Source: a virus. From it: DNA of 64,000 nt. Location of the stretch: the IMG/VR virus record IMGVR_UViG_3300034101_003424, positions 1-64,000 of that record; one strand, given 5' to 3'. Position numbers and translations under genes: made by a program. Below, piece by piece: positions 31,934-55,426 of the stretch; positions within the stretch are counted from its first letter, which is position 1, and every line of letters begins with the position of its first letter. The notes beneath the pieces are model-generated. The model was not told the DNA's origin. It did not search any database and worked only from the letters and a program-made list of their open reading frames with translations.

Positions 31934-31964
31934 GCCCCGCTAAAAAAATTTGGCGGGGCTTTTT
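31934..31964 (+). terminator. Rho-independent terminator
   Basis: GCCCCGCTAAA-loop-TTTGGCGGGGC followed by TTTTT. Confidence 0.88.
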
Positions 31965-33514: not shown

Positions 33515-33522
33515 TATTTATA
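33515..33522 (+). promoter_or_regulatory. Putative late promoter TATTTATA
   Basis: cTATTTATAtaaaa upstream of 33547. Confidence 0.7.
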
Positions 33523-34799: not shown

Positions 34800-36530
34800 A
34801 TGCCAAACTGGAAAAAAGTTTTAGTTAGTGGCTCAAACGCAGAGCTTAATAGATTAAATATATCTACATCTTTAACAGCAAGTGGTTTATTATATCCTGC
34901 ATCAGATGGAATTTCTGGACAAGTTTTAGGAACTGATGGTTTAGGTAATTTATCATTTAGTGATGTAACAATAGCCCAGGTGAGTACTGTGGCGGCATCT
35001 TTTGCATCTACGTCATCAATTACTGTACAGCATAATTTCAATTCTAAAAATGTAATAGTATCTGCTTATGATAATTCTGATTTTTACTTTGTTCCCGAAA
35101 CTATAAATTTACTTGATAATAATAGAGTAAAATTAACATTCTCTAACCCATCTACAGGACATGTTGTAGTGGCTAAGGGAGGTCATATAGTTAGTGCAAG
35201 TATGCAGGGAAACCAAGGACTTGTAGGCCCACAAGGATTTCAAGGACTTAGAGGTTTTCAAGGTTTTCAAGGTATTCAAGGTATTCAAGGTATTCAAGGC
35301 CCTATAAGAGAAGTTAGCGAGGTATCCACAGTATCTGCATCTTTTTCCGCTACCTCTTCCATAACAGTAACACACAATTTTAATTCAAAAAGTGTCGTTG
35401 TTTCTGCTTATGATGCTTCTGATTTTTACTTCGTACCTAACCAAATTAAATTACTAGACAATAATAGAGTAAAACTATCTTTTACTAGCCCATCAACAGG
35501 ATATGTAGTTGTAGCAAAAGGAGGACATATTGTTAGTGGTAGTTTATATATAGCCGGCCCACAAGGTCTACAAGGCACTACAGGAGCTCAAGGCTCACAA
35601 GGAAACCAAGGTATTCAAGGTATTCAAGGAACCAACGGAACAGTAGGCACACAGGGTTTTCAAGGCAATCAAGGCCCGCAGGGTAATCAAGGACCGCAAG
35701 GTAATCAAGGACCGCAAGGTAATCAGGGAATACAGGGCATACAAGGTACAGTAGGTACTCAAGGTTTCCAAGGCAATCAAGGACCACAGGGAAACCAAGG
35801 CCCAACAGGAATTCAAGGTACAGCAGGAACAAACGGAAACCAGGGTAATCAAGGCCCACAAGGTAATCAGGGAATACAGGGCATACAAGGGACAGTAGGT
35901 ACTCAAGGTTTCCAAGGCAATCAAGGACCACAGGGAAATCAAGGTATTCAAGGGACAGTAGGTACTCAAGGTTTCCAAGGCAATCAAGGACCACAGGGTA
36001 ATCAAGGCCCAACAGGAACTCAAGGTAATCAAGGAACATTCGGTATTAATGGATCATCAGGCCCTCCCGGCCCTTCCGGACCTCCCGGATCTTCCGGACC
36101 TCCCGGCCCTCCCGGACCTCCCGGATCAAGTGCAGGAATATCATCATATACAAACCCTGCTGACAACAGAGTTATAACATCTGTATCTTCAACAACTATA
36201 AATGCAGAATCTAATTTAACATTTGATGGTAGCGTATTAACAGTTACAGGAACTATAACAGAAACGTCATCAGAAAAAGTAAAAGAAAATATAGAAAAAC
36301 TGATAAATTCTTTAGATGTTGTAAAAAAGTTGCGGGGTGTTCAATATAATAAGAAAGGAAACAATATAAAGGAAATAGGTGTTATAGCAGAAGAGATAAA
36401 CGAAATACTTCCTCAAGTTGTTTCTATGGATTTAAACGGAAATCCTGCATCAGTATCTTACGGAAGATTAACAGCATTATTGATTGAAGCAATTAAGGAA
36501 TTAGATAACAAAATAAATAAATTAAAATGA
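34800..36530 (+). CDS. Collagen-like tail fibre with C-terminal S74-like chaperone
   Basis: Two HNFNSK.V.VSAYD modules, long G-X-Q collagen ending in GPP triplets, SSEKVKENI...IGVIAEE...[17 protein letters not shown]. Confidence 0.85.
35556..36124 (+). repeat. Collagen G-X-Q/T coding repeat array
   Basis: Recurrent caaggtttccaaggcaatcaaggacc blocks; GPP cap at about 36060-36124. Confidence 0.9.
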
Positions 36531-36769
36531 AAAAGTACTATCAAGTAGAGAATTATGGAAATGGGTTTATTACTCACCAAGAAAATGAAACGGCACATGT
36601 TGCAGGATATCCGGGCAATATTTGGGTGACCGAAAACACAACATGGGCTCAAAGAGTAAATGCTGTTGAAAAGACTAAAGCGGAGGCACAAGCCATTGTA
36701 GATGCTGCTGTTGCTGCTTCGTATGTCCCACCTAATAGCACAACACCTCCACCAATTGTATTACCTTAA
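36527..36769 (+). CDS. Small hypothetical protein (possible fibre assembly factor)
   Basis: ATGA-coupled to the fibre stop; function inferred from position only. Confidence 0.6.
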
Positions 36770-36778
36770 AAATTAAAT

Positions 36779-37462
36779 ATGAGTAAAGAGTTGCAGATTA
36801 CGGAAGATTTACGAGAGATTGTAAATGTTTTAAATGAAGAAGATGCTAATACTATTTTATCATTAAAAGATGAGTTAGTAGATAATTGGCACAAGAAACA
36901 GATTTTTAGAACAGAGACAGAAATGAGAGTATCTGTTTTAAATGACGCTAAACACCCTACAAATGCTTCTAAATATTGGCAATCAGTAAGAGAGATGTCA
37001 GCACATTTTGATGCATTGATGAATTTATCTTTTGATTTGAGAAAGAATACGGTAGAGAATTTAAGATATAATAGACAGATGGAAGAATTATTATCAGACC
37101 CTAATGCTAATAGATTTGACATCATGGAACTTGAAATTGATATTGACAGAAATTTATATGATAGGTCATGTATGTTACAGGTAGCTAAGGACAGGGTTAG
37201 AGAATTAAGTTTATGGAGTACTATTAAGAAAGAATTAGATGATAATTCTTTTGATGCAGAAAATGTAAACACTCACCAAGCAGAGTCTTTACATAGGTAT
37301 TTTGAGAATAGGGTTAAGTCTTTAAATGATTCTTCAGCTCCGGGAGAAATTATAAATGCCATGGGACCTTACTTATCTTTTAATCGTTTAAAGACAGATG
37401 ACGGTAAATTAAGAAACTTTTTGGGAGAGGTACCCGAAGATAAACAAAACAGATTACAATAG
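36779..37462 (+). CDS. Hypothetical coiled-coil protein
   Basis: Intact ORF, QIFRTETEM..SVLND..HPT.ASKYWQ. Confidence 0.65.
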   Translation: MSKELQITEDLREIVNVLNEEDANTILSLKDELVDNWHKKQIFRTETEMRVSVLNDAKHPTNASKYWQSVREMSAHFDALMNLSFDLRKNTVENLRYNRQMEELLSDPNANRFDIMELEIDIDRNLYDRSCMLQVAKDRVRELSLWSTIKKELDDNSFDAENVNTHQAESLHRYFENRVKSLNDSSAPGEIINAMGPYLSFNRLKTDDGKLRNFLGEVPEDKQNRLQ

Positions 37463-37466
37463 TTTT

Positions 37467-38051
37467 ATGACTAATTTTATCTACACTAAAAAAAATGCGT
37501 TATCAGCCAATACTTGTTATAATCTAATAAAAACTTTTGAAGGCTCTGATTTAAAACAAGCAGGTGTTCTTTATGGTCCTAACGGTATAAGCTCAGATAG
37601 CGATAAAAAATCAACAGATATAACCTTTGACCCATCCTTCCTAAAAAAAGAGGGATGGGCAATGTTGTTAGACGAGGTAATCATATCAATTCAGAATGGT
37701 GTTTCAGATTATCTAAATAGGCATTCTACCGCAATGTGTAAAATGGATCCTATTGATTTATACACTTACTTCAATATACAGAAATATGAACCTAATGAAG
37801 GATTCTATGGATGGCATTGTGAAAGAGCAGGTGTTAAACACTCGGATAGATTATTGGTTTGGATGATATATTTAAATACTGTAACGGACAGAGGAGAAAC
37901 AGAGTTCTTCTACCAGCAGCACTTTGAAGAACCAGAGAGAGGCAAGTTGGTTATTTGGCCTTCTGATTGGACTCATCTTCATCGAGGCGTTCCTTCACCA
38001 ACACAAACAAAGTATATTTTAACGGGATGGTTCACTCATAAAAATGTATAA
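37467..38051 (+). CDS. 2OG-Fe(II) oxygenase (prolyl-4-hydroxylase-like)
   Basis: IQKY.P..G...WHCE, WMIYLN, GETEF, GKLVIWP..WTHLHRG, KYILTGW. Confidence 0.88.
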   Translation: MTNFIYTKKNALSANTCYNLIKTFEGSDLKQAGVLYGPNGISSDSDKKSTDITFDPSFLKKEGWAMLLDEVIISIQNGVSDYLNRHSTAMCKMDPIDLYTYFNIQKYEPNEGFYGWHCERAGVKHSDRLLVWMIYLNTVTDRGETEFFYQQHFEEPERGKLVIWPSDWTHLHRGVPSPTQTKYILTGWFTHKNV

Positions 38052-38054
38052 GTT

Positions 38055-38651
38055 ATGGAATTTTCAGTACACGAAGAAACATGGTTTTCAACACCGGTTT
38101 GGGAATCAGAAGTTAAAAATATAAACAATGAAGAAATTAAAGATTATTGTTTGTATTTAAAAGCCAATACTAAAGGTGTAAATATTTCGAATAGAGGTGG
38201 ATGGCATAGTAGTGAAATATTATTACCAATGCCTCAAGATTTAAGAAATTTATTTAGCAATCTTGAAATCTTTGTTAACCAGAATTGTTTTAAACATATT
38301 GGAGTTCCTAATTTAAAGTTTGGTAATTTTTGGGTAAATATAAATACACCTAACTCTTATAACCTTGCACACGACCATCAAAACAGTGTATTATCAGGAG
38401 TGTATTATGTTTCTGTACCTTACGATAATATGGGTGATTTAGTTTTACATAGAGGAGATACAGCAGAATATTTTCTAAAATCAGATGTAGAGAGAATTGG
38501 TACAAAAACAAACTCTTTTGTAGCAGTAAAAAAACCTATAGAATCTGTTTTTTATATATTTCCATCATGGGTTAAGCATCATGTGGAATCGAATAATTCG
38601 CAGGGAGATAGAATATCAATAGCATTTAATTTCATCGCAGAGAATAAATAA
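38055..38651 (+). CDS. 2OG-Fe(II) oxygenase (TIGR02466-like)
   Basis: WVNIN...YN..HDH.NS.LSGVYYV, IFPSWVKHHV, RISIAFN. Confidence 0.88.
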   Translation: MEFSVHEETWFSTPVWESEVKNINNEEIKDYCLYLKANTKGVNISNRGGWHSSEILLPMPQDLRNLFSNLEIFVNQNCFKHIGVPNLKFGNFWVNINTPNSYNLAHDHQNSVLSGVYYVSVPYDNMGDLVLHRGDTAEYFLKSDVERIGTKTNSFVAVKKPIESVFYIFPSWVKHHVESNNSQGDRISIAFNFIAENK

Positions 38652-38655
38652 AGTT

Positions 38656-39294
38656 ATGAATGCACAAGTTTATCCCATATTTCCAACACCTCTATATGTT
38701 GCAAATTATGATAAAGATTTAAAAGATGTAATAGATTATTTTGACAGTTCAGAAATGCAAGATACTAAAGCAGGGTATGGAATGATATCTACTAATAGTT
38801 ACATTTTAGATAATCCTATATGCAATGAATTAAATACATTTCTTATGTCATGTTTTGAAGATTTTGCAACAAACATTATGAGATATAGATTTAAAGAATT
38901 AGGATTTGCACAATCATGGTTAACGTATAAGAATCCCAACCAAATTCATAAAGCACATACTCATCCAAATACAATATTGGCGGGAGTATTCTACTATGAC
39001 GCACATGAGGATGATGCTGCTATATGTTTTTCAAAAGATGTTAAATCATTTAATAGGTCATACTTTGAACCATCTTTACATGACGATTATCAAAATCATG
39101 TATTTTCACAAGAAGAGATTTACTACATGCCAAAGAAAAATGATTTCCTCATATTTCCATCATGGTTGACACATGGAGTACCTCCGAATAGAACAAACCG
39201 AGTGAGAAAAGCATTAGGAGTAAACGCATTAACGAAAGGAACATTAGGAGATAAAGAAACCATATCTGAAATAATTTTTGGAAGATACTCATGA
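38656..39294 (+). CDS. 2OG-Fe(II) oxygenase (TIGR02466-like)
   Basis: FPTP, SW.....H..HTHPN..LAGVFY, IFPSWLTHGV, RKALGVN. Confidence 0.85.
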   Translation: MNAQVYPIFPTPLYVANYDKDLKDVIDYFDSSEMQDTKAGYGMISTNSYILDNPICNELNTFLMSCFEDFATNIMRYRFKELGFAQSWLTYKNPNQIHKAHTHPNTILAGVFYYDAHEDDAAICFSKDVKSFNRSYFEPSLHDDYQNHVFSQEEIYYMPKKNDFLIFPSWLTHGVPPNRTNRVRKALGVNALTKGTLGDKETISEIIFGRYS

Positions 39295-40109
39295 AACAAA
39301 AGATATTTTTTAATTCCACATTACCTAGAAGTGGAAGTACATTATTACAAAATATAATGGGACAAAATCCTGAATTCTTTGTAACACCGACATCAGGTCT
39401 AATTGATTTGATGCTAGGAGCAAGAATAGGATACAATCAAAACTATGAATCTAAGGCAGGTGATACAGAAATGTGGAGAGAAGGATTCTATAAATTTTGC
39501 GGGGAAGGAATAAAAGCATATATAGCATCACAGACATCAAAACAATATTACTTAGATAAGAATAGAGTCTGGGCATTCTACTATAACCTATTATCAAACA
39601 TGGTAGAAAAACCAAAAGTATTATACATGGTTAGAGATTTACCATCCATATTTGCATCCATGGAAAAGAAGTTTAGAATGAATCCTGACAAAGATGATGG
39701 TACTATGGATAATGTAAAGATGAAAGGAACTACAACACATAAGAGAGTTGAATTATGGGCTCAATCACATCCTGTAGGTTATTCATTAGAAAAATTGTAT
39801 CAGACTTTGTTGGATGGTACAGCTTCCAACTTTTTATTTATTAGATATGAAGATTTGTGTAGTAATCCTGATAATGTAATGAAAAGCATCTATCAATATT
39901 TAGAGTTAGATGAATTTAAACATGATTTCCAACATATAAGTCAAGTCACCACCGAAAATGATGCAATACATGGAATATATGGAGACCATGTGATAAGACC
40001 ATATTTACAAATGTTGCCAAATGATTCAAAAGAGATATTAGGATTACATACCGTAGATTTGATTAAAGAGAATTATAAATGGTATTATGATTTCTTTGGG
40101 TATAAATAA
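39291..40109 (+). CDS. Sulfotransferase
   Basis: PAPS-binding LPRSGSTLL, DKNR.W, MVRD...I.AS, IRYEDL..NP. Confidence 0.88.
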   Translation: MKQKIFFNSTLPRSGSTLLQNIMGQNPEFFVTPTSGLIDLMLGARIGYNQNYESKAGDTEMWREGFYKFCGEGIKAYIASQTSKQYYLDKNRVWAFYYNLLSNMVEKPKVLYMVRDLPSIFASMEKKFRMNPDKDDGTMDNVKMKGTTTHKRVELWAQSHPVGYSLEKLYQTLLDGTASNFLFIRYEDLCSNPDNVMKSIYQYLELDEFKHDFQHISQVTTENDAIHGIYGDHVIRPYLQMLPNDSKEILGLHTVDLIKENYKWYYDFFGYK

Positions 40110-40122
40110 AGTTGGGAGAGGA

Positions 40123-40130
40123 TATTTATA
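40123..40130 (+). promoter_or_regulatory. Putative late promoter TATTTATA
   Basis: 10 nt before the first propeller gene ATG. Confidence 0.7.
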
Positions 40131-40140
40131 ATAAAATAAT

Positions 40141-41091
40141 ATGGCAAAATTACAGAGTACAGAGATAGTAGGTGTTGCAAATAGACCTGCAACAATATGT
40201 TCAAATACAATGTGCATTTGGTTTGACACAACTAATTTAAAAACGGTTATTTCGTATGTTCTTGGTACATCTTGGTCAGCAGGTGGTGCAATGATAACTG
40301 CAAGACTAAGTTTAGCAGGTGCAGGGTCACAAAACGAAGGACTTGCATTTGCGGGTTATGGAGGAACTAATTGCACAGAAGAATACAATGGTACATCTTG
40401 GTCAGTAGGTGGTACTTTGGCAATAGGAAGATACCCTTTGGGTAGTGCAGGTACACAGAATGCAGGACTTGCTTTTGGTGGGAATCCATTTGGTATGTGT
40501 ACAGAAGAATATAATGGCACAAGTTGGGCAGCAGGTGGTGCTTTAATAAGAAGTAGGCAATTATTAGCAGGAGCAGGAACGCAAAATGTAGGACTTGGAT
40601 TCGGAGGTTACCCCGATACTGCTTCAGTGTGTACAGAAGAATACAATGGCACATCTTGGGCAGCAGGTGGTGCACTTATAACAGGTAGAAATTCATTAGC
40701 AGGGGCAGGAACACAAAATGAAGGACTTGCTATAGGAGGGTACGCAGTAGGTTTTATTAGAGTATCTTGTACAGAAGAATACAACGGCACATCTTGGTCA
40801 GCAGGAGGTGCTTTAATAACTGCAAGAAAATCATTAGCAGGAGCAGGAACACAAAATGTAGGACTTGCCTTTGGGGGAACTACAGCTTCCCTTGTATCAT
40901 GCACAGAAGAATACAATGGCACATCTTGGTCAGCAGGAGTTCCGTTAATAACAGCAAGAGATAGATTAGCAGGAGCAGGAACACAGAATGAAGGACTTGC
41001 TATGGGTGGAGTAAACGGCCCTTCGATAGTTTCATGTACAGAAGAATATAATAAACCATTAACATCAGTAGTAGTAGATTCAATACAATAA
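40141..41091 (+). CDS. Six-bladed Kelch-like beta-propeller protein 1 (putative receptor-binding/adhesin)
   Basis: Six repeats WSAGGALITAR..LAGAGTQN.GLA.GG....CTEEYNG; N-terminal RPATIC..C.WFDTT module. Confidence 0.8.
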   Translation: MAKLQSTEIVGVANRPATICSNTMCIWFDTTNLKTVISYVLGTSWSAGGAMITARLSLAGAGSQNEGLAFAGYGGTNCTEEYNGTSWSVGGTLAIGRYPLGSAGTQNAGLAFGGNPFGMCTEEYNGTSWAAGGALIRSRQLLAGAGTQNVGLGFGGYPDTASVCTEEYNGTSWAAGGALITGRNSLAGAGTQNEGLAIGGYAVGFIRVSCTEEYNGTSWSAGGALITARKSLAGAGTQNVGLAFGGTTASLVSCTEEYNGTSWSAGVPLITARDRLAGAGTQNEGLAMGGVNGPSIVSCTEEYNKPLTSVVVDSIQ

Positions 41092-42977
41092 TATGGCAAA
41101 ATTACAAAGCACAGAGATAGTAGGTGTTGCAAATAGACCTGCAACAATATGTTCCAATAGTGTTTGTATTTGGTTTGATACGACTAATACTAAAATAGTT
41201 TATTCATATTGTGGGTATAGTGGTGCAGGTGTCTGGTCAGCAGGGGGTGCTTTGATAACGGCACGAAGATATTTAGCAGGTGCAGGGTCACAAAACGAAG
41301 GACTTGCAGCAGGAGGTTTTACAACTGTAGTGGTATCATGTACAGAAGAATACAATGGTACATCTTGGTCAGCAGGGGGTGCATTGATAGTAGCTAACTA
41401 TGCACATGAAAGTGTTGGTACACAAAATATAGGTCTTGTAATTGGTGGTTATAACGGAAGTATTAATTTAGCTTGTACCGAAGAATACAATGGCACATCT
41501 TGGTCAGTAGGGGGTGCGTTGATAACTGCAAGAAGGGCATCTGCAAGTGGAGGTGTACAAAATGAAGCCTTTGCCGCAGGAGGTCTTACAAGTGTTGGTG
41601 TATCTAATACAGAGGAATATAATGGGACATCTTGGTCAGCAGGAGGAGCATTGATAACAGCAAGATATGTTTTAGCAGGAGCAGGAACGCAAAATGTAGG
41701 ATTAGCTATGGGAGGTTTTACAAATGTGAATGTATCTTGTACGGAGGAATATAATGGTACATCTTGGTCAGCGGGAGGTGCAGTAATAGTAGCAAGGTCA
41801 AATTTAGCAGGAGCAGGTACGCAGAATGAAGCATTAGTTATGGCAGGTGAAATACCCGCAGCATCAAGTTGTACAGAAGAATATAATGGTACAAGTTGGT
41901 CAGTAGGTGGTGTTTTAATAACGGTAAGGACACATATACCTGCAAGTGGAGGTTCTCAGGGAGCTGCATTTTTAGCAGGTGGATGGACAGGAGCTGTTAC
42001 ATCTTGCACCGAAGAATACAATAAACCATTAGCAATAATAGACTGTATTAAATAGAATATACAATATGGCAAAATTACAGAGTAGTGAAGTTGTTGGAGT
42101 TGCAAATAGACCTGCAACAATATGTGTAAATACTGTTTGTTTATGGTTTGATACAACTACTCAAAAACCAATGGCATCTTATTGTGCAAGGAGTGGTGCA
42201 GGAGCTTGGTCAGCAGGAGGTGCGCTGATAACAGCAAGATTTTATTTAGCAGGAGCAGGAACACAAAATGCAGGACTTGTGGTTGGAGGGTATACAAATG
42301 CAAGTGTAGCAAATACAGAAGAATATAATGGTACGTCTTGGTCAGCAGGTGGTGCAATTATAACAGGTAGATATGATTTAGCAGGAGCAGGAACACAAAA
42401 TGAAGGACTTGCTATAGGAGGTTATACAAATGTATCTTTGTCTTGTACAGAAGAGTATAATGGAACATCGTGGACAACAGGAGGTGCTTTAATAACAGCA
42501 AGATGGGGATTAAGAGGTGCAGGTGAGCAGAATTCAGGACTTGTAACAGGCGGTTTTACGAATGTAACTGTTTCATGTACCGAAGAATATAATGGCACAT
42601 CTTGGTCAACAGGAGGTGTAATGATAGTAGGCAGACGCCCATCAATGTCAGCAGGATTTCAGAATGTAGGACTTGCAGCAGGAGGTTTTACGAATGTAAA
42701 TGTTTCATGTACCGAAGAATATAATGGCACATCTTGGTCAACAGGAGGTGTAATGATAATTGCACGATGTTATTCATCAGGAGCAGGAACACAAAATGAA
42801 GCCTTTGTTGCAGGAGGTTATACAAATGTATGTGTGTCTTGTACAGAAGAGTATAATGGAACATCGTGGACAACAGGAGGTGCTTTAATAACAGCAAGGC
42901 ATACTTTAGCAGGAGCAGGTACACAAGGGGCAGGACTTGTAATGGGAGGTTATATAATTTCTTGCACAGAAGAATAC
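40264..42977 (+). repeat. Propeller-blade coding repeats (about 126-138 nt unit), 18 blades in three tandem genes
   Basis: Conserved gaagaata(c/t)aatgg(c/t)acatcttggtcagcagg and ttagcaggagcaggaacacaaaatg frameworks separated by variable loops. Confidence 0.92.
41093..42055 (+). CDS. Six-bladed Kelch-like beta-propeller protein 2
   Basis: Same architecture; first ~60 nt nearly identical to 40141. Confidence 0.8.
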   Translation: MAKLQSTEIVGVANRPATICSNSVCIWFDTTNTKIVYSYCGYSGAGVWSAGGALITARRYLAGAGSQNEGLAAGGFTTVVVSCTEEYNGTSWSAGGALIVANYAHESVGTQNIGLVIGGYNGSINLACTEEYNGTSWSVGGALITARRASASGGVQNEAFAAGGLTSVGVSNTEEYNGTSWSAGGALITARYVLAGAGTQNVGLAMGGFTNVNVSCTEEYNGTSWSAGGAVIVARSNLAGAGTQNEALVMAGEIPAASSCTEEYNGTSWSVGGVLITVRTHIPASGGSQGAAFLAGGWTGAVTSCTEEYNKPLAIIDCIK

Positions 42978-43016
42978 CTAAAATCATCATACACAATAGT
43001 AAATTGTATCTTATAA
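42066..43016 (+). CDS. Six-bladed Kelch-like beta-propeller protein 3
   Basis: Same architecture; internal blade duplications at DNA level. Confidence 0.8.
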   Translation: MAKLQSSEVVGVANRPATICVNTVCLWFDTTTQKPMASYCARSGAGAWSAGGALITARFYLAGAGTQNAGLVVGGYTNASVANTEEYNGTSWSAGGAIITGRYDLAGAGTQNEGLAIGGYTNVSLSCTEEYNGTSWTTGGALITARWGLRGAGEQNSGLVTGGFTNVTVSCTEEYNGTSWSTGGVMIVGRRPSMSAGFQNVGLAAGGFTNVNVSCTEEYNGTSWSTGGVMIIARCYSSGAGTQNEAFVAGGYTNVCVSCTEEYNGTSWTTGGALITARHTLAGAGTQGAGLVMGGYIISCTEEYLKSSYTIVNCIL

Positions 43017-43044
43017 TTTACATATAACAAAAAATAGTTTTAAT

Positions 43045-43920
43045 ATGAATAAATACGTTATTTGGCACATTCAAGGAGGTTTAGGAAAAAATGTGGCAGC
43101 AACAGGATTACCAAAGACAATAAAAGAAGTATATAGTGACAGACAACTTATAATGGTTGTGTCATATCCCGAAGTTTTCCTAAACAATCCTTATGTTGAT
43201 AGGGTATATCCGTTAGGTAATTGCCCCTACTTTTACGAGGATTTTATAGAGAATAAGGATACCCTTGTTTTTAGGCATGAACCTTACAATCAAACAGGAC
43301 ATATTTTAAAGCATAAGCATTTAATTAATAATTGGTGTGACTTACTTGGAATAGAATACAGCAATCAAACCCCTCAATTATACCCCAACTACTCAGAGAA
43401 GATAAATGCGAAGAAATGGTTTAGAGATAAGCCTGTCGTAGTATTACAAACATCAGGTGGAGAGTTAGAATCAAAAAATGTATATTCATGGTGTAGAGAT
43501 ATGCCACAAGATATAGCACAGTTAATTGTAGATAAATATAAAGATTCATTTCATATATTTCATGTATCAAGGCAAGGAGGATATGTTTTAAATAATGTAG
43601 AAAGAATTGATACTAAATTATCTAACATGGAATTATTTAGCATGTTAACTGTATCATCTAAGAGATTTTTAATTGATTCATCTTTGCAACATGCAGCGGT
43701 AGCCATTAATTTACCATCTGTTGTATTTTGGATTGGGACATCTCCGCAAGTTTTTGGTTACGATATGCATACGAATATTGTGGCGAAGCAGATTAATAAT
43801 AAGAATCATTTAATTGGCTCTTACCTATTTGACTTTCAGTTTGATTACAATGTGCATGAATGTCCGTACAGTACCTTAGAGGAAATGTTTGATATAAATG
43901 ATGTAATAAATAAGATATAA
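43045..43920 (+). CDS. Glycosyltransferase, GT-B fold (GT9/heptosyltransferase-like)
   Basis: QGGLGKNV..T, VFLNNPYVD, IDSSLQHAA.A..LPSVVFW. Confidence 0.75.
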   Translation: MNKYVIWHIQGGLGKNVAATGLPKTIKEVYSDRQLIMVVSYPEVFLNNPYVDRVYPLGNCPYFYEDFIENKDTLVFRHEPYNQTGHILKHKHLINNWCDLLGIEYSNQTPQLYPNYSEKINAKKWFRDKPVVVLQTSGGELESKNVYSWCRDMPQDIAQLIVDKYKDSFHIFHVSRQGGYVLNNVERIDTKLSNMELFSMLTVSSKRFLIDSSLQHAAVAINLPSVVFWIGTSPQVFGYDMHTNIVAKQINNKNHLIGSYLFDFQFDYNVHECPYSTLEEMFDINDVINKI

Positions 43921-44838
43921 ATGAAATTTTGCATAGCTACATTGACTCATAGATATGAAGATAGAGATGTTTATTTAAGAAAGACTATAGAAAGTTTTAT
44001 AGATAATACAGAATTTGACGGCATGTTTGATTGGTACATTCATTGTAATGGTCAATATGATTTAATGGATGTTGTCATTAAAGAGATGGCTAGTAAATAT
44101 TGGGATAAGATTAACTTTTACTATTCCTCATCTCCTGATAACATGGGAGTAGGTGTTGGTATTAATTATTTGAATTCATTGGTTAGAGATTATGAGTATG
44201 TTTTATTTTTAGAAGGAGATTGGATTTGTTTGCCCGGCGAAATTTCTGGTCATAATGATTGGTTAAGAGATTGCCTTAATTACTTAGACGAAAACAAAAA
44301 CATCAGTCAAGTGTTACTAAGGAGATACATTAGTGATTTGGATGATAGGCAGTATGGATATGGGTATTGGATACGAGAAGATAATATAAAAAGTGTGGGG
44401 AAGTTAAAAAATACATATCTCCATTTACATAAGAAAGAATATACCAACAATCCATACATAAGAAGAAACAATGACTTTTATGATAAGAACATATTACCAT
44501 TAAATGAATTCTATGATGAAAATGGATTACCTAATGAAATTAAAGGTTTATCCATGTGGGGACAAGCTGAGATACAAGCAGAGTCAAAAGGATATGAAAT
44601 AGAATCATGTTATCTAGCATTTGGGAACATGGTACATTGTGAAGCATGGCATTATTATAAAGAGTATGATAAATTAATTGAGGAAGATATGACATGTAAA
44701 AAGTATTTAGATGTTGGTAAAGCAGGATGTAAATATGGATACTTCTTCCCCGCAAAAAAGTTCTGTGAAGTATGTGACCATTCTAAAAACTTCACGGATT
44801 TAGAAAGACACGAACAGGAATACGAAAGTAAATTATAA
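43921..44838 (+). CDS. Glycosyltransferase, GT-A-like
   Basis: YLRKTIESF, NMGVGVGIN, YEYVLFLEGDW; Cys-containing C-terminus. Confidence 0.65.
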   Translation: MKFCIATLTHRYEDRDVYLRKTIESFIDNTEFDGMFDWYIHCNGQYDLMDVVIKEMASKYWDKINFYYSSSPDNMGVGVGINYLNSLVRDYEYVLFLEGDWICLPGEISGHNDWLRDCLNYLDENKNISQVLLRRYISDLDDRQYGYGYWIREDNIKSVGKLKNTYLHLHKKEYTNNPYIRRNNDFYDKNILPLNEFYDENGLPNEIKGLSMWGQAEIQAESKGYEIESCYLAFGNMVHCEAWHYYKEYDKLIEEDMTCKKYLDVGKAGCKYGYFFPAKKFCEVCDHSKNFTDLERHEQEYESKL

Positions 44839-44842
44839 GGAT

Positions 44843-45772
44843 ATGACACATAAAAGTAATTTTGAGAATGTTTTTTGGCATATAGACAGTATGAGATTAA
44901 TTAGCAACGACTTATATGAAGTAAGCGGTTGGATTTTTAGTACAGAAGGAAGTGTTAAAAAAGTAATTATTGGAGACGTAGAATATGCGAATCTCCAAAA
45001 TGGATTGTACCCTAGAAAAGATGTCAAAGAGGTATATCCTGATTTACCTAATGATCTGGTGGGTTGGACTTTCATGGTTAAACCCTCTAATGTAAATGCT
45101 CCTATAGATATTATTTTGGATAACGAAGTGCAGGTTTCAAATATCGGCACCTTAGATTCCTGGCATGTCTTTAATTCCGGTTTTAATCCTCACGCTTCTA
45201 AAGATATTGTTGTTGTAGATAATTTTTACATGCAACCAGACTTAGTGAGAGACTATGCTATTCATAATCTAAAATATTCCGAATCTGATTACCACAGAGG
45301 CAGAAGAAGTGATACCTCTTTTATACTAAATGGAACACTAGAAAGATTTGAGGAGATATTAGGGAGACCTATCTATAATTGGAACCATCCGGAATATGCC
45401 AATGGGAGATTTCAATATTGTACTTCGACAGATCCTATTGTATATCATGTAGATTCTCAAAAGTATGCCGCCATGGTTTACTTAACGCCGGATGCACCTT
45501 TACAGAGTGGAACCGCAACATACAAAAGCATTCACACAAAAAAGACAAAGTTTGATGAAGCTAGTGGTAAAGATTACGAGAAAGCATTTAAGGGAAGAAG
45601 TAGCGAATTAAATTTTTATGATAAGACATCTTTTGAACTAGTTGATAATATAGCTAACGTATATAATAGATTAGTTTTGTTTGATGCTAAAAATATTCAT
45701 GCTGCTGTAAACTACTTCGGTGACACTAAAGAAAATAGTAGATTTTTCCATTTATTCTTTTTTGATATATGA
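44843..45772 (+). CDS. 2OG-Fe(II) oxygenase (DUF6445-like) with N-terminal Ig-like domain
   Basis: IVVVDNFY..PD.VR, YHVD, AAMVYLTP, NVYNRLVLFD...IH, RFFHLFFF; N-terminal VSGWIF...R.DV...YP. Confidence 0.8.
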   Translation: MTHKSNFENVFWHIDSMRLISNDLYEVSGWIFSTEGSVKKVIIGDVEYANLQNGLYPRKDVKEVYPDLPNDLVGWTFMVKPSNVNAPIDIILDNEVQVSNIGTLDSWHVFNSGFNPHASKDIVVVDNFYMQPDLVRDYAIHNLKYSESDYHRGRRSDTSFILNGTLERFEEILGRPIYNWNHPEYANGRFQYCTSTDPIVYHVDSQKYAAMVYLTPDAPLQSGTATYKSIHTKKTKFDEASGKDYEKAFKGRSSELNFYDKTSFELVDNIANVYNRLVLFDAKNIHAAVNYFGDTKENSRFFHLFFFDI

Positions 45773-47622
45773 AGACTAGATTCCAGGTTATAACAAGATG
45801 TACAAGACCTCAAAATCTTTTACAGATATATGATAGTTTTAATTATACTTCAACTAGCAATCATTTTGTAAATTGGCATGTGTTATTTGACACCTCGTCT
45901 TTGATTGATATTGATTCTAAATTACTTCAGGAATTATATAAGAGAGATGCCATTTTACATTTTTTAGAAAGTGATGGTACCGATTATCTATATCCTCAAA
46001 TAAGTGAACTTGTTAGTAATCTTGATGGAGGATGGGTTGTAATTATGGATGACGACAATATATGCTATCCTAATTATTTTGATGTCCTTAGTGATGAAAT
46101 AAAGAATAATAGCAAGTTGGCTTATGTTTACGAACAAGAAGTAAATGGTAGAGATTTCACCGGACTAGACATAAGGAAAGTCGGCCCGGAGCACATGAAG
46201 TTAAAACATATTGATTCAGCACAATATATCATACATACCTCTTTACATCAAAAATTAAAATATGAACCCGGATATGATGCTGATGGTAAATTTATAGAAA
46301 AATTATATGACGAACATTCTGATAAATTTGGTTTCATAGAAAAACCACTGTGTTATTATAATGCTTTAGCGGTAGAATCAAAAGCTAGAGTTCCTAAAGT
46401 TTTATATTTGGGACCAGATAAACCAGAATTAAAAAGTGTAAAGTATGCAGATTATGAAGACGATTCTCTAAATGTAAAATATATTGAGAACGATCAAAAC
46501 ATAAGTAAAGATATAGCTGATTTTAATCCTGATTCTATCATAAGCATTTCAGATGATTATTATAAAGAATATAAGAACCTATGCAACCAGCCATCCTATG
46601 TTAGAAATAGATGGATTAACTTAAATCCTCACCACGATAAAGAAACAGGGATATCTTATAATGTAGGAGAGATAGCATATAATTGCGCGATGAATAGCAT
46701 ACTTAGGTCTGACTACGATGCGGTGGTTTCTTTCTTTACACCAATTTACAACACGAAAGAAAAACTTTGGACAACTTATGACTCAGTAAAGAATCAGACA
46801 TTTCCGAACTGGGAATGGGTTATAGTTAATGACTCTTCTGACGGAGGTAAAACTTTAAAGATTGCCTTGGAAATAGCATCACAAGACCATCGAGTTAAGG
46901 TATATGACTTTAGAGAAAAATCAGGTGGTATTATAGGCGAATCTAAATACAGAGCAGCAACACTTACTAAAGGCAGATGGTTAGCAGAGTTAGATCATGA
47001 CGATTATCTTATGCCAGATTGCGCAAAGTACATAATAGAGGCAGCTAATAAGTTTCCAGATGCAGGATTCATATATACCGATAGCGTAGAACTAGATGAA
47101 TTTCACAACTCTATGACTTATCCGGATGGGTTTTGTTTTGGTTATGGTAAGTATCGAAAAGAGAATCATTATAGGAATACTTGGGATGTTGTAGATTCTC
47201 CGAACATCAATCCAAAAACAATTAGACACATAGTAGGCGTACCAAACCATGTTAGAGTATGGAGAAGAGATGTTTATTTTTCGGTGGGAGGACACAATAG
47301 AAATCTATCCATCGCAGATGACTATGAATTAATCGTCAGAACATTTCTAAAGACTAAGTTTGTAAAAATACCAAAATTAGGATATCTTCAATACATCTAT
47401 AATAATTCAAATGGAAGAAATACACATGACTTATCAAGAGCAGATATCCAGAGAAGAGTCAGATCAATCATGTATTTTTATAATGATGCAATAAATGAAA
47501 GATTTAAAGAATTAGGAGTGATTGATTATGCATATAAAGAAAATGAAAACAATCCTTTAAATGTAGAAAGTAGATTTGGAGAAGATGAAAACTATGTAAA
47601 TTATATATTCAATGACTTATAG
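45769..47622 (+). CDS. Two-domain GT2 glycosyltransferase
   Basis: N-terminal TRCTRPQNL...MDDDN; C-terminal FTPIYNT, SVKNQTFPNWEWVIVNDSSD, ELDHDD, ADDYEL. Confidence 0.88.
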   Translation: MKTRFQVITRCTRPQNLLQIYDSFNYTSTSNHFVNWHVLFDTSSLIDIDSKLLQELYKRDAILHFLESDGTDYLYPQISELVSNLDGGWVVIMDDDNICYPNYFDVLSDEIKNNSKLAYVYEQEVNGRDFTGLDIRKVGPEHMKLKHIDSAQYIIHTSLHQKLKYEPGYDADGKFIEKLYDEHSDKFGFIEKPLCYYNALAVESKARVPKVLYLGPDKPELKSVKYADYEDDSLNVKYIENDQNISKDIADFNPDSIISISDDYYKEYKNLCNQPSYVRNRWINLNPHHDKETGISYNVGEIAYNCAMNSILRSDYDAVVSFFTPIYNTKEKLWTTYDSVKNQTFPNWEWVIVNDSSDGGKTLKIALEIASQDHRVKVYDFREKSGGIIGESKYRAATLTKGRWLAELDHDDYLMPDCAKYIIEAANKFPDAGFIYTDSVELDEFHNSMTYPDGFCFGYGKYRKENHYRNTWDVVDSPNINPKTIRHIVGVPNHVRVWRRDVYFSVGGHNRNLSIADDYELIVRTFLKTKFVKIPKLGYLQYIYNNSNGRNTHDLSRADIQRRVRSIMYFYNDAINERFKELGVIDYAYKENENNPLNVESRFGEDENYVNYIFNDL

Positions 47623-48277
47623 TGTAATCATTCCTACATTATGGAGATGTAACTTAGAGGAATTTTATAATACCCTGCGAATTTTCTGCGGGGAACCTCA
47701 AATAAAAGAAATCATATTAATAGACAATGACATAACATTTAAACAAACAATAAAACAAAACATATTAAACATAAGCTATAAAATAAAATACTATCCACAA
47801 CAAGAAAATATATATGTAAACCCATCATGGAACTTAGGCGTATCAAAATCCAGCGGGGAACACTTAATGATAGTAAATGATGACTTCCACATAACATCTA
47901 AAAAAACATTAAAAAACATATTAAAAACACATCAAGATAATAAAGACATATTAAATAGCATATATGGAATATCAACATCATGCTACATAGAAGAACCAAC
48001 ATCAAATAAAATATACTTAACAGACAATGAAGGAAGAGGAACCGGGTGGGGATGCTTCTTCATATTACATAAAGATACATGGACAGACATCCCAAATGAA
48101 TTAAAAATATGGTTCGGAGATGACTACATAACAAAACATGTATTAAGAAATGGAGGAAAAGTCTATACATTCAAAAATATACATGCATATCCATTCTCAC
48201 AAACAATATCTCTACAAATATTTAATAGCATCCTAGATAATGACACTAAAATATACATGGAGAAATATGACATTTAA
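47612..48277 (+). CDS. GT2 glycosyltransferase
   Basis: SVIIPT, IILIDN, NIYVNPSWNLG, IVNDD, GWGC, IWFGDD. Confidence 0.85.
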   Translation: MTYSVIIPTLWRCNLEEFYNTLRIFCGEPQIKEIILIDNDITFKQTIKQNILNISYKIKYYPQQENIYVNPSWNLGVSKSSGEHLMIVNDDFHITSKKTLKNILKTHQDNKDILNSIYGISTSCYIEEPTSNKIYLTDNEGRGTGWGCFFILHKDTWTDIPNELKIWFGDDYITKHVLRNGGKVYTFKNIHAYPFSQTISLQIFNSILDNDTKIYMEKYDI

Positions 48278-48316: not shown

Positions 48317-50737
48317 ATGAGAATAGACCAAATAGAATTATCAGGTTCGTTATTTGTCACAGCAAGTGCATCAATCATATTAGGACAGACTAAGATATCC
48401 TCTGACAACAACGGGTCAATATCTTTTACAAATGTCAGTAACCCAACGCAAAAAGTAATAGGTTCATATTCGGGTTCATTCACAGGTAGTATAAAATTAC
48501 CTACTATTCCACTTGGTACTTCCGAAACAAATATAGTATTGGTTAATGGTAGTGGAGGTCTAGTATATAGAAGCAACCTATCTTTAACGGGTGCTCAAGG
48601 TAGTCAAGGTGCAACAGGAGTACAAGGAACTAACGGCACTGTAGGTACACAAGGTTTTCAAGGCAATCAAGGTTCTCAAGGTAACCAAGGTATTCAAGGA
48701 ACAGTAGGAACACAAGGAACTAACGGCACTGTAGGTACACAAGGTTTCCAAGGCAATCAAGGAACAACGGGTTTACAAGGCACTACAGGAGCTCAAGGCA
48801 CTCAAGGATTTCAAGGTATTCAAGGAACAGTAGGTACACAAGGAAGTCAAGGAGCAAATATAGCATCCACTGAATCAAGACCATCTCCCATAAACGCAGA
48901 CCAAATGTGTTTATGGTTTGACACCACAAGTAAGATGCCAATGGTTTCTTATTGCATTAACACATCATTAGTGGGTTCTTGGTCAGCGGGAGGGGCATTG
49001 ATAACGGCAAGATTCGGTTTAGCAGGAGCAGGAACACAAAATGCGGGACTTGTAGCAGGAGGTTATATAAATGCAAACGTAGCCTGCACCGAAGAATATA
49101 ATGGCACATCTTGGTCAGCAGGTGGTGTATTGATAACAGCAAGACGTTATTTAGCAGGTTTAGGGACACAAAATGCAGGACTTGTAACAGGAGGCTATAC
49201 AAATGAAGTAGTAGCCTGCACCGAAGAATATAATGGCACATCTTGGTCAGTAGGTGGTGCATTAATAACACCAAGATATGGTTCAGCAGGAGCAGGAACA
49301 CAGAATGCAGGTCTTGCAACAGGAGGTTATTTTTCAGGAGGAGGTGTGTCTTGTACAGAAGAATACAATGGTTCATTATGGTCAGCAGGTGGTGCATTGA
49401 TAACAGCAAGACAAATATTAGCAGGTGCAGGTTCACAAAATGCAGGTCTTGTTGCAGGAGGTTATTTTTCAGGAGGAGGTGTGTCTTGTACAGAAGAATA
49501 TGATGGTACATCATGGTCAGCAGGAGGTACACTAATAACAGCAAGGTATGCTTTAGCAGGAGCGGGAACACAAAATGCTGGACTCGCATCAGGAGGATAC
49601 CCAACTGTATCCTGCACCGAAGAATACAATGGCACATCTTGGTCAGCAGGAGGTGCATTGATAACAGCAAGAGGTTATTTTGCGGGAGCAGGTACGCAAA
49701 ATGCAGGACTTGTAGCAGGAGGGATTGGAGGCACAGCATGTACAGAAGAATACAACGCACCAACCGAAATCGTTGACCGTAGTTTAGACTCATCTTACAA
49801 TACAGCACAATATCCAAATAGACCTGAGATACTTGAAACAGGAATGTGTATGTGGTTTGATTCTGTGAATAGAAAACCTATGGTATCTTACTATGGGTTT
49901 GGAGGTATTGGTTCTTGGTCAGCAGGTGGTGCATTGATAACTGCAAGAGGTTATTTAGCAGGAGCAGGGACACAAAATGAAGTATTTATAGCAGGAGGTT
50001 ATGCTGGAGCTAATGTATCATGCACAGAAGAATACAATGGCACATCTTGGTCAGCAGGAGGTGCATTGTCTACTGCAAGACATGTTTTAATAGGAGCAGG
50101 AACACAAAATGTAGGACTTGTAGCAGGAGGAAATAATGGTGCAAATGTTTCATGCACAGAAGAATACAATGGCACATCTTGGTCAGCAGGTGGTTCATTG
50201 ATAACAGCAAGAGGATATTTAGCAGGTACAGGAACACAAAATGAAGCATTTGCAGCAGGGGGTTCTTCAAATACAATTGTCTCATGCACAGAAGAATATA
50301 ATGGCACATCTTGGTCAGCAGGTGGTGCATTAATAACAGCAAGATATCGTTTCGCAGGAGCGGGAACACAGAATGCAGGTCTTGCTATGGGAGGTGACAC
50401 AGGTGCGGGGACTGCCCTTACTTGCACAGAAGAATACAATGGCATTGCATGGTCAGCAGAGAGTGCAATGACAGTTTCAAAATTTTATTTAGCAGCAGCA
50501 GGAACACAAAACGAAGGTATTGCTTTTGCATCATATACAAAGGAAACTTGTACTGAAGAGTACAACGGTATATCTTGGTCAGCAGGTGGAGCAATGTCAA
50601 ATTCAAGATACGGCCCACTTGCAGGAGCAGGTACACAAAATGCAGGACTTGCAGCAGGAGGTACAGGCGGTGGAGTTGCTCGTTCTTTCACAGAAGAATA
50701 TAATAAACTACTTCAAATAGTTGATTGCTGCTTATAA
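48317..50737 (+). CDS. Collagen-like tail fibre carrying two six-bladed Kelch-like propellers
   Basis: MRID.I.LSGSL start, G-X-Q collagen, then 2x [RP....MC.WFD...PMVSY + 6 blades]. Confidence 0.85.
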   Translation: MRIDQIELSGSLFVTASASIILGQTKISSDNNGSISFTNVSNPTQKVIGSYSGSFTGSIKLPTIPLGTSETNIVLVNGSGGLVYRSNLSLTGAQGSQGATGVQGTNGTVGTQGFQGNQGSQGNQGIQGTVGTQGTNGTVGTQGFQGNQGTTGLQGTTGAQGTQGFQGIQGTVGTQGSQGANIASTESRPSPINADQMCLWFDTTSKMPMVSYCINTSLVGSWSAGGALITARFGLAGAGTQNAGLVAGGYINANVACTEEYNGTSWSAGGVLITARRYLAGLGTQNAGLVTGGYTNEVVACTEEYNGTSWSVGGALITPRYGSAGAGTQNAGLATGGYFSGGGVSCTEEYNGSLWSAGGALITARQILAGAGSQNAGLVAGGYFSGGGVSCTEEYDGTSWSAGGTLITARYALAGAGTQNAGLASGGYPTVSCTEEYNGTSWSAGGALITARGYFAGAGTQNAGLVAGGIGGTACTEEYNAPTEIVDRSLDSSYNTAQYPNRPEILETGMCMWFDSVNRKPMVSYYGFGGIGSWSAGGALITARGYLAGAGTQNEVFIAGGYAGANVSCTEEYNGTSWSAGGALSTARHVLIGAGTQNVGLVAGGNNGANVSCTEEYNGTSWSAGGSLITARGYLAGTGTQNEAFAAGGSSNTIVSCTEEYNGTSWSAGGALITARYRFAGAGTQNAGLAMGGDTGAGTALTCTEEYNGIAWSAESAMTVSKFYLAAAGTQNEGIAFASYTKETCTEEYNGISWSAGGAMSNSRYGPLAGAGTQNAGLAAGGTGGGVARSFTEEYNKLLQIVDCCL

Positions 50738-50827: not shown

Positions 50828-52279
50828 ATGAGAATAGATAAAATCCAATTATCAGGGTCTTTACTAATATCTTCAAGTTTATCTCGAAGTCCTTTACGAA
50901 TAAATGATAACTATTTATATATAAACCCACAAGGTAACATAGGAATAGGAACTACAAATCCTACCTCAAAATTAGTAGTAACAGGTAGCATAGCAGTACA
51001 AGGACAATTAAGAGCAACAACATTATCAGGCTCATTCACAGGAAGCATTAAATTACCTACTATACCACTAGGAACATCGGAGACAAATATAGTATTGGTA
51101 GATGGTAGTGGTGGTTTAGTATATAGAAGTAACCTATCTTTAACAGGAGCTCAAGGAACACAGGGTACACAAGGAACACAGGGTACACAAGGAACACAAG
51201 GAACACAAGGTTTCCAAGGCAATCAAGGACCACAGGGAAACCAAGGTATTCAAGGAACTAACGGAACAGTAGGAACTCAAGGTTTACAAGGTAACCAAGG
51301 ACCTCAAGGTAATCAAGGACCTACCGGAATACAAGGTACAAACGGAGCTCAAGGTTTCCAAGGCAATCAAGGCCCACAGGGAAACCAAGGACCAACAGGT
51401 ATTCAAGGCACAGTAGGTACCAATGGAAACCAAGGCAATCAAGGACCTCAAGGTAATCAAGGACCTACCGGAATACAAGGTACAGCAGGAACAAACGGAA
51501 ACCAAGGTAATCAAGGACCTACCGGAATACAAGGTACAGTTGGCACACAAGGTTTTCAAGGCAGACAAGGACCACAGGGTAATCAAGGCCCAACAGGAGT
51601 ACAAGGTACAATAGGCTCTGCTGGTCCATCAGGCCCTCCCGGTCCTCCTGGCCCTCCCGGACCATCAGGAGGTACAGGTCCGCAAGGAGCAGTAGGACCA
51701 AATGGTAGAATTTCACCGAGTGGTATTACACAGGGATCTTATGGATCTATTTCTATATCTGGAACTACAAATACTTATGCCGGTATTAACTTTAGTGACC
51801 CTTACATAACATTAATGGTAAATGTAGGAGCAACTGGATTTTATGTTAATAATAATTCATGGAGAGCATATTGGGATGCAAATGCTACCTTACAAAATTA
51901 TGGCGACGTAATTGCTTATGCTTCTGACAAAAGATTAAAAAATAATATAAAAAATATTCCAAATGCTTTAAGTAAAGTATTAAGTATAAATGGTGTAAAT
52001 TATAATTGGGATTTAGTTGAATGTAATAAATGGGGTTTTAATCCAAATGAATCAGATGTTGGGGTTATAGCTCAAGAAGTACAAGAAGTATTACCCGAAG
52101 CAGTAAAATATGCTCCATTTGATAGAGACCCAATAAAAGGAACAGATAGTATATCGGGTAAAGATTATTTAACAGTACAATACGATAAACTAATCCCCTT
52201 ATTAATAGAAGCGATAAAAGAACAACAACAACAGATTAATGAGTTAAGTAGTGAAATAAAAATACTAAAAGAAAAATAA
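50828..52279 (+). CDS. Collagen-like tail fibre with C-terminal peptidase S74 chaperone
   Basis: GNIGIGTTNP, G-X-Q collagen with GPP cap, SDKRLKNNI...GVIAQEVQEVLPEAV...[16 protein letters not shown]. Confidence 0.9.
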   Translation: MRIDKIQLSGSLLISSSLSRSPLRINDNYLYINPQGNIGIGTTNPTSKLVVTGSIAVQGQLRATTLSGSFTGSIKLPTIPLGTSETNIVLVDGSGGLVYRSNLSLTGAQGTQGTQGTQGTQGTQGTQGFQGNQGPQGNQGIQGTNGTVGTQGLQGNQGPQGNQGPTGIQGTNGAQGFQGNQGPQGNQGPTGIQGTVGTNGNQGNQGPQGNQGPTGIQGTAGTNGNQGNQGPTGIQGTVGTQGFQGRQGPQGNQGPTGVQGTIGSAGPSGPPGPPGPPGPSGGTGPQGAVGPNGRISPSGITQGSYGSISISGTTNTYAGINFSDPYITLMVNVGATGFYVNNNSWRAYWDANATLQNYGDVIAYASDKRLKNNIKNIPNALSKVLSINGVNYNWDLVECNKWGFNPNESDVGVIAQEVQEVLPEAVKYAPFDRDPIKGTDSISGKDYLTVQYDKLIPLLIEAIKEQQQQINELSSEIKILKEK

Positions 52280-55379: not shown

Positions 55380-55426
55380 TATTTTATCATTTTTACGTTA
55401 AATAATTGTTTATAGACTTGTATATC

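Follow-up and report, generated by a model that had tools for sequence, protein, structure and literature searches.

Genes of the cassette

The stretch of DNA analysed here (the window) comprises 64,000 nucleotides (nt) of a viral genome, the first 64 kb of the 92.8-kb IMG/VR record IMGVR_UViG_3300034101_003424, for which CheckV gives a completeness of 51%. Between positions 36779 and 48277 on the + strand it carries a cassette of 2-oxoglutarate (2OG)-Fe(II) oxygenases, a sulfotransferase and glycosyltransferases (GTs), set among genes for collagen-like fibres and Kelch beta-propellers. A first-pass annotation of the window had read this cassette as a pathway that decorates virion fibres. Our analysis upholds its enzyme assignments and, tentatively, the decoration of fibres or adhesins, but not the collagen-centred mechanism proposed for it.

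The cassette follows a fibre gene (34800..36530, +) with collagen runs of 64 and 11 Gly-X-Y triplets in which Y is mostly Gln, a GPP cap and a Peptidase_S74 chaperone domain. An 80-aa protein with a conserved N-terminal motif (36527..36769, +) and a 227-aa coiled-coil protein (36779..37462, +) precede three 2OG-Fe(II) oxygenases (37467..38051, 38055..38651 and 38656..39294, all +) and the sulfotransferase (39291..40109, +). Three paralogous Kelch beta-propeller genes come next (40141-41091, 41093-42055 and 42066-43016, +), and behind them lie a GT-B glycosyltransferase (43045..43920, +), a divergent GT2-type (GT-A) glycosyltransferase (43921..44838, +), a DUF6445 protein resembling 2OG oxygenases (44843..45772, +), a 617-aa GT2 protein (45769..47622, +) and a small GT2-type glycosyltransferase (47612..48277, +). 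Two further fibre genes close the series. The first (48317..50737, +) has a 30-triplet collagen run and Kelch-like repeats at its C-terminus, and the second (50828..52279, +) a run of 63 triplets, a GPP cap and an S74 chaperone domain.

The tight, co-oriented packing without a terminator that the first-pass annotation described is borne out: intergenic gaps in the interval 36779-48277 (+) run from -11 to +31 nt, and its sole + strand terminator-like site, at 46799, is weak and lies within a coding region. The enzymes named there stand; the first gene of the interval, 36779-37462, encodes the coiled-coil protein and not an enzyme. The + strand holds nearly every gene from 30568 to 58898, and fibres, propellers, endolysin and enzyme genes form a single co-oriented block. 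A search of all products for membrane or signal segments found none, and all are predicted to be soluble.

The baseplate wedge gene is closest to that of Microcystis phage Mel-JY01 (49.7%), followed by Flavobacterium 'immuto' phages (41%), with no T4-like phage among its listed matches; on these neighbours we regard the backbone as not T4-like. Several cassette enzymes resemble genes of cyanophages and pelagiphages, and a near-identity search of the cassette DNA against GenBank phages returned zero matches.

Oxygenases and the proteins that precede them

All four oxygenases of the first-pass annotation were recovered, three as Pfam 2OG-Fe(II) oxygenases and the fourth as the DUF6445 protein. 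The 37467 product belongs to the prolyl-hydroxylase type family PF13640 (E 1.9e-11; 45.2 bits against a gathering cut-off of 27). Across 11 homologues its residues H117, E119, H172 and K182 do not vary; they correspond to the HxD/E...H motif and the 2OG-binding basic residue, with a His-to-Lys spacing of 10 residues. The 38055 and 38656 products belong to PF13759 (82.6 and 66.8 bits against a cut-off of 27; E 2.9e-23 and 2.4e-18), and for the related TIGR02466 (cut-off 62.5) the former scores above the threshold at 83.8 bits and the latter below it at 58.8 bits. This pair keeps H-x-H...H...R (H106, H108, H175, R186) in place of the usual HxD/E...H triad, as seen in alignments of 13 and 20 homologues. 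The DUF6445 protein (E 4e-10) shows the pattern HxD...H...R as YHVD...NIHAAV...SRFFH and has an unassigned 107-aa N-terminal domain.

The coiled-coil protein encoded at 36779 has 85 invariant positions among relatives at 57-85% identity and is modelled as a long helical hairpin. It matched no known family: tblastn against phages gave zero matches, a PDB profile search one weak match only, and the model matched no fold in PDB or BFVD.

Sulfotransferase and glycosyltransferases

The sulfotransferase that the first-pass annotation placed after the oxygenases matches Sulfotransfer_3 (PF13469) and Sulfotransfer_1 (PF00685) at E 1.3e-16, scoring 61.9 bits for PF13469 against a Pfam cut-off of 27. 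The stretches PRSGST and VRD...S, which bind the donor 3'-phosphoadenosine 5'-phosphosulfate (PAPS), are conserved; P12, R13, G15, S16, T17, V114, R115 and S123 are invariant and align with the corresponding stretches of human TPST1. TPST1 (E 1.4e-8) and TPST2 (E 2e-5) are also the closest solved structures to the sulfotransferase profile, which in addition matches polyketide and small-molecule sulfotransferases (4gox, CurM); carbohydrate sulfotransferases are absent from its match list.

The GT-B call for 43045 was reached by fold. The product has no Pfam family, PF01075 included, at E 0.01, and its only link to a family comes through an Atlas cluster, 26% of whose proteins bear PF01075. A model folded from an alignment built on related loci (pLDDT 80) matched 3tov (E 2.3e-9), WaaF (1psw; 1.8e-8), TibC (8e-8) and WaaC (1.8e-7) in Foldseek, with TM scores of 0.55-0.65 against GT9 structures. 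As modelled, the product is a GT-B fold of the GT9 heptosyltransferase type.

Searches of Pfam, NCBIfam, PHROGs and PDB and a phage tblastn search left the neighbouring 43921 product, which bears an EGD motif, without any match in its own right, and a PDB profile search was also empty. The protein does have 93 metagenomic relatives, and since 7 of 24 aligned homologues match PF00535 we assign it to GT2, in agreement with the earlier GT-A call. The two genes annotated as GT2 also hold, by Pfam matches at E 6.9e-7 for 47612 and E 7.9e-25 for the C-terminal half of the 45769 product. The N-terminal half of the latter contains a DDD motif and matches GT2 once more, though weakly (PF00535, E 5e-4, under the cut-off), making a second GT-A domain probable.

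Conservation across related loci

IMG/VR scans with 43921, 43045 and the sulfotransferase profile yielded 114 loci (designated L), onto which the window proteins were mapped; many of these loci are mutually related, so that counts drawn from them are not counts of independent events. In close relatives the gene order is 36527, 36779, three oxygenases, sulfotransferase, one to four propeller or collagen genes and the GT9-like gene, with enzymes 80-98% identical to those of the window and propellers and collagens 55-72% identical. Relatives at 52-65% identity carry 36527, 36779 and five oxygenases (two PF13640, three PF13759), followed by the GT9-like gene, propellers and sulfotransferase, and have no collagen run of at least 10 triplets within 10-kb flanks. 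At 37-51% identity only the GT9-like gene remains, followed directly by the sulfotransferase. The two genes adjoin in nearly all relatives at 44-64% identity, and at L087 both enzyme blocks are contiguous, just upstream of tail sheath and tube genes.

Oxygenases are seen solely at loci where 36527, 36779 and Kelch propellers are present as well, and an 80-aa protein heads the oxygenase sub-module in every case. Five records with the GT9-sulfotransferase pair only lack PF13759 entirely, and in one of them a PF13640 gene lies at a distance of over 100 kb. The cassette is thus a composite, as its relatives hold the sub-modules separately: an oxygenase sub-module, the GT9-sulfotransferase pair, which is the widespread core, and a GT-A block.

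The sulfotransferase has at least 398 relatives in IMG/VR. In 42 of 80 sulfotransferase loci, the GT9-sulfotransferase pair is followed by genes for an adenosine 5'-phosphosulfate (APS) kinase and a cytidylyltransferase-like protein. Uncultured phage contigs thereby share a recurrent four-gene unit of GT9-like protein, TPST-like sulfotransferase, APS kinase (PF01583) and cytidylyltransferase-like protein (PF01467), found at L035:9995-12495, L062:6079-11641, L114:9110-11666 and 39 more loci, usually downstream of large fibre-like genes. The APS kinase would supply PAPS and the cytidylyltransferase-like protein perhaps an activated sugar.

Outside viruses the GT9-like gene is rare. A pattern-based scan of 185,579 species genomes gave four full matches, all on short contigs of metagenome-assembled genomes (MAGs; L119-L122); the sulfotransferase is present on three, the APS kinase on two, and a protein with a long Gly-Thr-Ser repeat, (GTS)n, on L120. 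The last is binned as Eubacteriales, and its carrier would, if the binning is right, infect a host without lipopolysaccharide (LPS), although a bin assignment is not dependable for a contig of 9.9 kb.

Position beside fibre genes

The pair recurs next to large structural genes in diverged phages. It comes after a collagen-like (GTS)n protein of about 3,000 aa at L035 and L038 and after a 1,167-aa tail-fibre protein at L114, and at L029 the module has a 1,761-aa fibre on one side and the terminase and portal genes on the other. Among distinct loci with enough flank, 17 of 24 have a same-strand open reading frame (ORF) of at least 600 aa ending no more than 3 kb upstream; in three reference phage pieces, which make a rough control, this is so for 24% of genes.

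(GTS)n runs stand beside the pair in several lineages and reach 474 triplets (L096). The giant fibre proteins of relatives contain very long (Gly-Thr-Ser)n and (Gly-Ser-Ser)n runs without Pro; examples are L096:13775 (474 triplets), L046:3634 (209 triplets) and L035:689-9568.

Collagen runs and Kelch propellers

The description of the window's collagens in the first-pass annotation holds for their composition and for most of their caps. In the two long runs Gln occupies position Y of 43 out of 64 and 39 out of 63 triplets, and GPT and GNQ triplets occur. Across the main runs Y is Gln, Thr, Asn or Val, and Lys prevails only in a 9-triplet run of 32004. GPP caps terminate the runs of 34800 and 50828, whereas that of 48317 is uncapped.

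Searched against the PDB, the propeller genes hit Kelch proteins (E 9e-9), and the C-terminal repeats of fibre 48317 are of the same kind as the stand-alone propellers. The EEY and NGT sequences of the Kelch blades were considered as sulfation or glycosylation sites and given no weight, as these residues are part of the structural Kelch motif. Nor did a prolyl hydroxylase of Mel-JY01 prove to lie beside a collagen gene: its 792-aa neighbour has no GXY run.

Candidate late-promoter boxes

The octamer TATTTATA occurs in ten + strand copies in the 30.5-58.5 kb block, eight of them in short spacers (30500, 31983, 33515, 40123, 48291, 50800, 56147 and 58516, all +). Seven of these boxes lie 9-24 nt ahead of a start codon and one lies 60 nt ahead, and four of the boxed start codons belong to the fibre or propeller genes 32004, 40141, 48317 and 50828. 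TATTTATA is the reverse complement of the T4 late box and a candidate late-promoter element. The T4 late box itself, TATAAATA, was uninformative on the coding strand, the reverse word being the one placed before genes, and scans for sigma-70 promoters gave no more than shuffled sequence.

Two boxes bear on the cassette. One (33515..33522, +), 24 nt before the ATG of 33547, is the predicted start of a unit running through 34800, the oxygenases and the sulfotransferase; the other (40123..40130, +), 10 nt before the ATG of the first propeller, is the predicted start of a unit covering 40141-48277. No enzyme gene of the window has a box of its own, so the oxygenases and sulfotransferase would be read with fibre 34800, and the GT9-like gene and GT-A block with the propellers. 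Boxes are placed alike in four diverged relatives (L046, L053, L062 and L082), mostly before large fibre genes. At L082 one box stands ahead of the fibre and the whole module, and at L046 the 80-aa gene heading the module has its own box. The only strong terminator-like hairpin of the + block (31934-31959, 11 pairs followed by a T run) lies just before the box of 32004.

Proposed substrate of the cassette

We propose that soluble, late-made enzymes modify virion fibres or adhesins in the cytoplasm before or during assembly, a reading to which we give a probability of roughly 45%. We infer its timing, acceptor and chemistry from gene identities, folds, motifs, order, conservation and the position beside fibre genes. 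The enzymes would be made late, alongside the tail fibres and Kelch-propeller adhesins. The first sub-module (80-aa protein, coiled-coil protein and three 2OG oxygenases, five in relatives) would hydroxylate the acceptor, and its two small proteins may serve as fibre chaperones or adaptors. The second, the GT9-fold enzyme and the TPST-like sulfotransferase, would add a sugar, possibly heptose, and sulfate, in most relatives bringing its own APS kinase and nucleotidyltransferase as donor supply. The third, comprising three GT-A genes and the DUF6445 oxygenase, would extend the glycan. Features of the enzymes themselves lean towards cytoplasmic protein substrates.

What supports fibre decoration is the fibre-gene context, the solubility of the products, the recurrence of the cassette and the TPST-like enzyme. 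Further points in its favour are the placement of the boxes, the higher conservation of the enzymes than of the adhesins, the donor-supply genes of relatives, the (GTS)n stalks beside the pair, the fold match to TibC, the scarcity of cellular homologues and the precedents from Mimivirus and a mycobacteriophage. The collagen and GPP mechanism of the first-pass annotation, with GPP caps as targets of a prolyl hydroxylase and sugars on Thr at position Y, is not supported by the comparison. Besides the window's two fibres, only L007 and L014 have caps, and the homologous fibres of L005 and L006 end GAT GAS despite oxygenases 90-97% identical to those of the window. We therefore rejected a rule tying caps to the prolyl-hydroxylase-type gene. 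The mechanism also fits poorly with the five-oxygenase relatives that lack collagen runs of at least 10 triplets in their 10-kb flanks and with the pair-only phages that lack oxygenases. The acceptor is more likely a conserved fibre or adhesin framework, or Ser/Thr-rich collagen-like stalks, than the GPP caps.

That the caps are not conserved is one of several results that weigh against the decoration of fibres or adhesins in general. Neither the APS kinase nor the cytidylyltransferase-like gene was found in 92.7 kb of this genome. A stricter test, restricted to the adjacent upstream gene, gave no enrichment of large ORFs (5/43 versus 53/587), and the loci counted are, as said, related to one another. 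The best six PDB matches of the 37467 product, to prolyl 4-hydroxylases of Chlamydomonas and Bacillus anthracis, are non-significant (E 0.03-0.05), and the fold match of 43045 does not discriminate LPS from protein heptosyltransferases. The total count of TATTTATA is not above chance (26 versus 17.8 +/- 4.5); what stands out is its placement alone, and AT-rich spacers are prone to contain such words. Two further points of this kind come from the literature and from family membership: GTs in fibre clusters have been read in print as modifiers of the host O-chain (PMC7029224), and GT2, GT8, GT9 and GT25 are classical LPS families.

These last two points favour remodelling of the host envelope, in which the enzymes would alter LPS core or O-chain or exopolysaccharide, for example with a sulfated heptose, and so block superinfection or the sticking of virions to debris. 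The gene location would then reflect a fibre region that is a hypervariable host-recognition island. A cytidylyltransferase-like partner suits ADP-heptose synthesis for the LPS core, and in NCBIfam the GT2 genes match polysaccharide enzymes best, although all these matches are far under the cut-offs. We nevertheless consider host remodelling less likely, though it is a serious competitor and the strongest one. The products include no membrane-associated component, the GT9-like gene has almost no cellular homologues in the pattern-based scan, and the sulfotransferase is closest to protein-tyrosine rather than carbohydrate enzymes. Moreover, the enzymes stay constant while receptor-binding proteins, and presumably receptors, vary, and predicted co-transcription with late structural genes and endolysin would leave little time to benefit from an altered host.

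The cassette might instead act on another substrate or be unlinked cargo in a plastic region, modifying small molecules or host proteins, as the 2OG oxygenases dispersed over cyanophage genomes may do, or maturing the 80-aa protein. Such a role seems less probable still. In its favour, the PF13640 oxygenase has relatives in 443 phage records, chiefly of cyanophages, of which those examined do not lie beside fibres; no characterised PF13759 member was found among the literature and structures searched; and the Kyanoviridae relative AG-345-L05, in 49 kb of which no collagen run reaches 8 triplets, has DUF6445 and GT9-like genes. The constant first place of the 80-aa protein in the oxygenase sub-module would suit a modified-peptide pathway, but the conserved part of this protein is its N-terminal domain and not a variable core peptide. 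Either version also sits poorly with a gene order kept over 44-98% identity in different settings, where the downstream neighbours are the sheath and tube genes or else the terminase and portal genes, with the contiguous enzyme blocks of L087 and with the enrichment of large ORFs upstream in the 3 kb test.

The alternative in the first-pass annotation that the enzymes modify DNA, which would here mean hydroxylating and glycosylating phage bases against restriction as phage glycosyltransferases and TET/JBP-type oxygenases do elsewhere, is very improbable: the Pfam scans gave PF13640, PF13759 and DUF6445 with no TET/JBP-type match reported and placed no cassette protein in a DNA-base-modifying family, the cassette sits in the structural and not the replication block, and we know of no role for a sulfotransferase or APS kinase in DNA modification. 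The option is also named in the literature (PMC7029224).

Returning to the decoration of fibres and adhesins, a broader version is doubtful: that many uncultured phages make hydroxylated, glycosylated and sulfated 'proteoglycan-like' fibres and adhesins by means of a portable, self-sufficient cassette, which in most relatives has a PAPS supply of its own and a TPST-like sulfotransferase. If the fibres are decorated, adsorption would depend on chemistry that is hidden from sequence-based prediction of receptor-binding proteins, and sulfation and hydroxylation would join glycosylation as modifications of phage virions. The product would be the first sulfated phage virion protein, possibly tyrosine-sulfated or sulfo-glycosylated, and a new layer of host-range control. 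The GT9-like and sulfotransferase unit, often with APS kinase and nucleotidyltransferase, is a compact marker. Were the host surface the target instead, the cassette would represent a widespread phage-borne sulfation of bacterial glycans, not described in the literature searched.

Relation to known systems

One close precedent is the host recognition cluster (HRC) of pelagimyophages and cyanomyophages, a hypervariable region in which tail fibres, including collagen triple repeats, are interleaved with glycosyltransferases (PMC7029224). The cassette likewise combines fibre genes and glycosyltransferases in a hypervariable region, but on a backbone that, unlike that of HRC phages, is not T4-like. 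The HRC is described with GTs and sugar-precursor genes, and not with oxygenases, sulfotransferases, APS kinase or Kelch propellers; the word sulfotransferase is never used (PMC7029224). Our search found no paper tying phage sulfotransferases or 2OG oxygenases to fibres, with subscription journals mostly outside its reach.

Mimivirus modifies a virus-encoded collagen with its own hydroxylase and glycosyltransferases (PMC9546862, PMC12279948, PMC9614988). The window resembles giant viruses in co-encoding collagen-like proteins with hydroxylase-type enzymes and glycosyltransferases. However, the Mimivirus enzymes hydroxylate Lys and glycosylate hydroxylysine, whereas Lys is nearly absent from position Y here, which is mostly Gln; Pfam scans matched no lysyl-hydroxylase or collagen glycosyltransferase family, and the host is bacterial. 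The glycosyltransferase genes of one mycobacteriophage have been read as a sign of capsid glycosylation (PMC11256854). Virion glycosylation of this kind is not known to involve oxygenases or sulfotransferases, unlike this cassette. Tail-tube proteins of actinobacteriophages are reportedly modified as well.

The bacterial autotransporter heptosyltransferases TibC/Aah (PDB 4rap, 4rb4) offer a precedent for the GT9-like gene, with a GT9 fold and a cytoplasmic transfer of heptose onto a repetitive adhesin. TibC ranks near the top of the fold matches for 43045, but WaaF, WaaC and 3tov match equally well or better, and sequence identity is 14-15%. The 39291 product is of the same Pfam family type as TPST1 and TPST2 (Sulfotransfer_3), with the aligned PAPS-binding stretches conserved. 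RaxST is a bacterial protein-tyrosine sulfotransferase, and BclA of the Bacillus exosporium is a Thr-rich collagen-like filament that is O-glycosylated in the bacterial cytoplasm. BclA differs from the present case in its enzymes, its GPT repeat and its place on a spore surface rather than a virion. Prokaryotic collagens have been reviewed (PMC8968730).

Neighbouring genes

Downstream of the last fibre, the co-oriented block continues with a fourth stand-alone Kelch propeller gene (52281..53258, +) and the endolysin gene (53855-54739). Past the endolysin lies the second sulfotransferase that the first-pass annotation had noted, now placed at 55406..56104 (+); it matches Sulfotransfer_2 (PF03567, E 2.3e-9) and is kept in relatives. 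Two neighbouring genes with ParB N-terminal domains (57314-57928 and 57897-58496, +) stand directly downstream of it. On the minus strand, collagen-like runs of 28 triplets (2-2629) and 26 triplets (18278-20518) lie among and upstream of the baseplate genes, and collagen-like runs occur in at least five genes of this phage.

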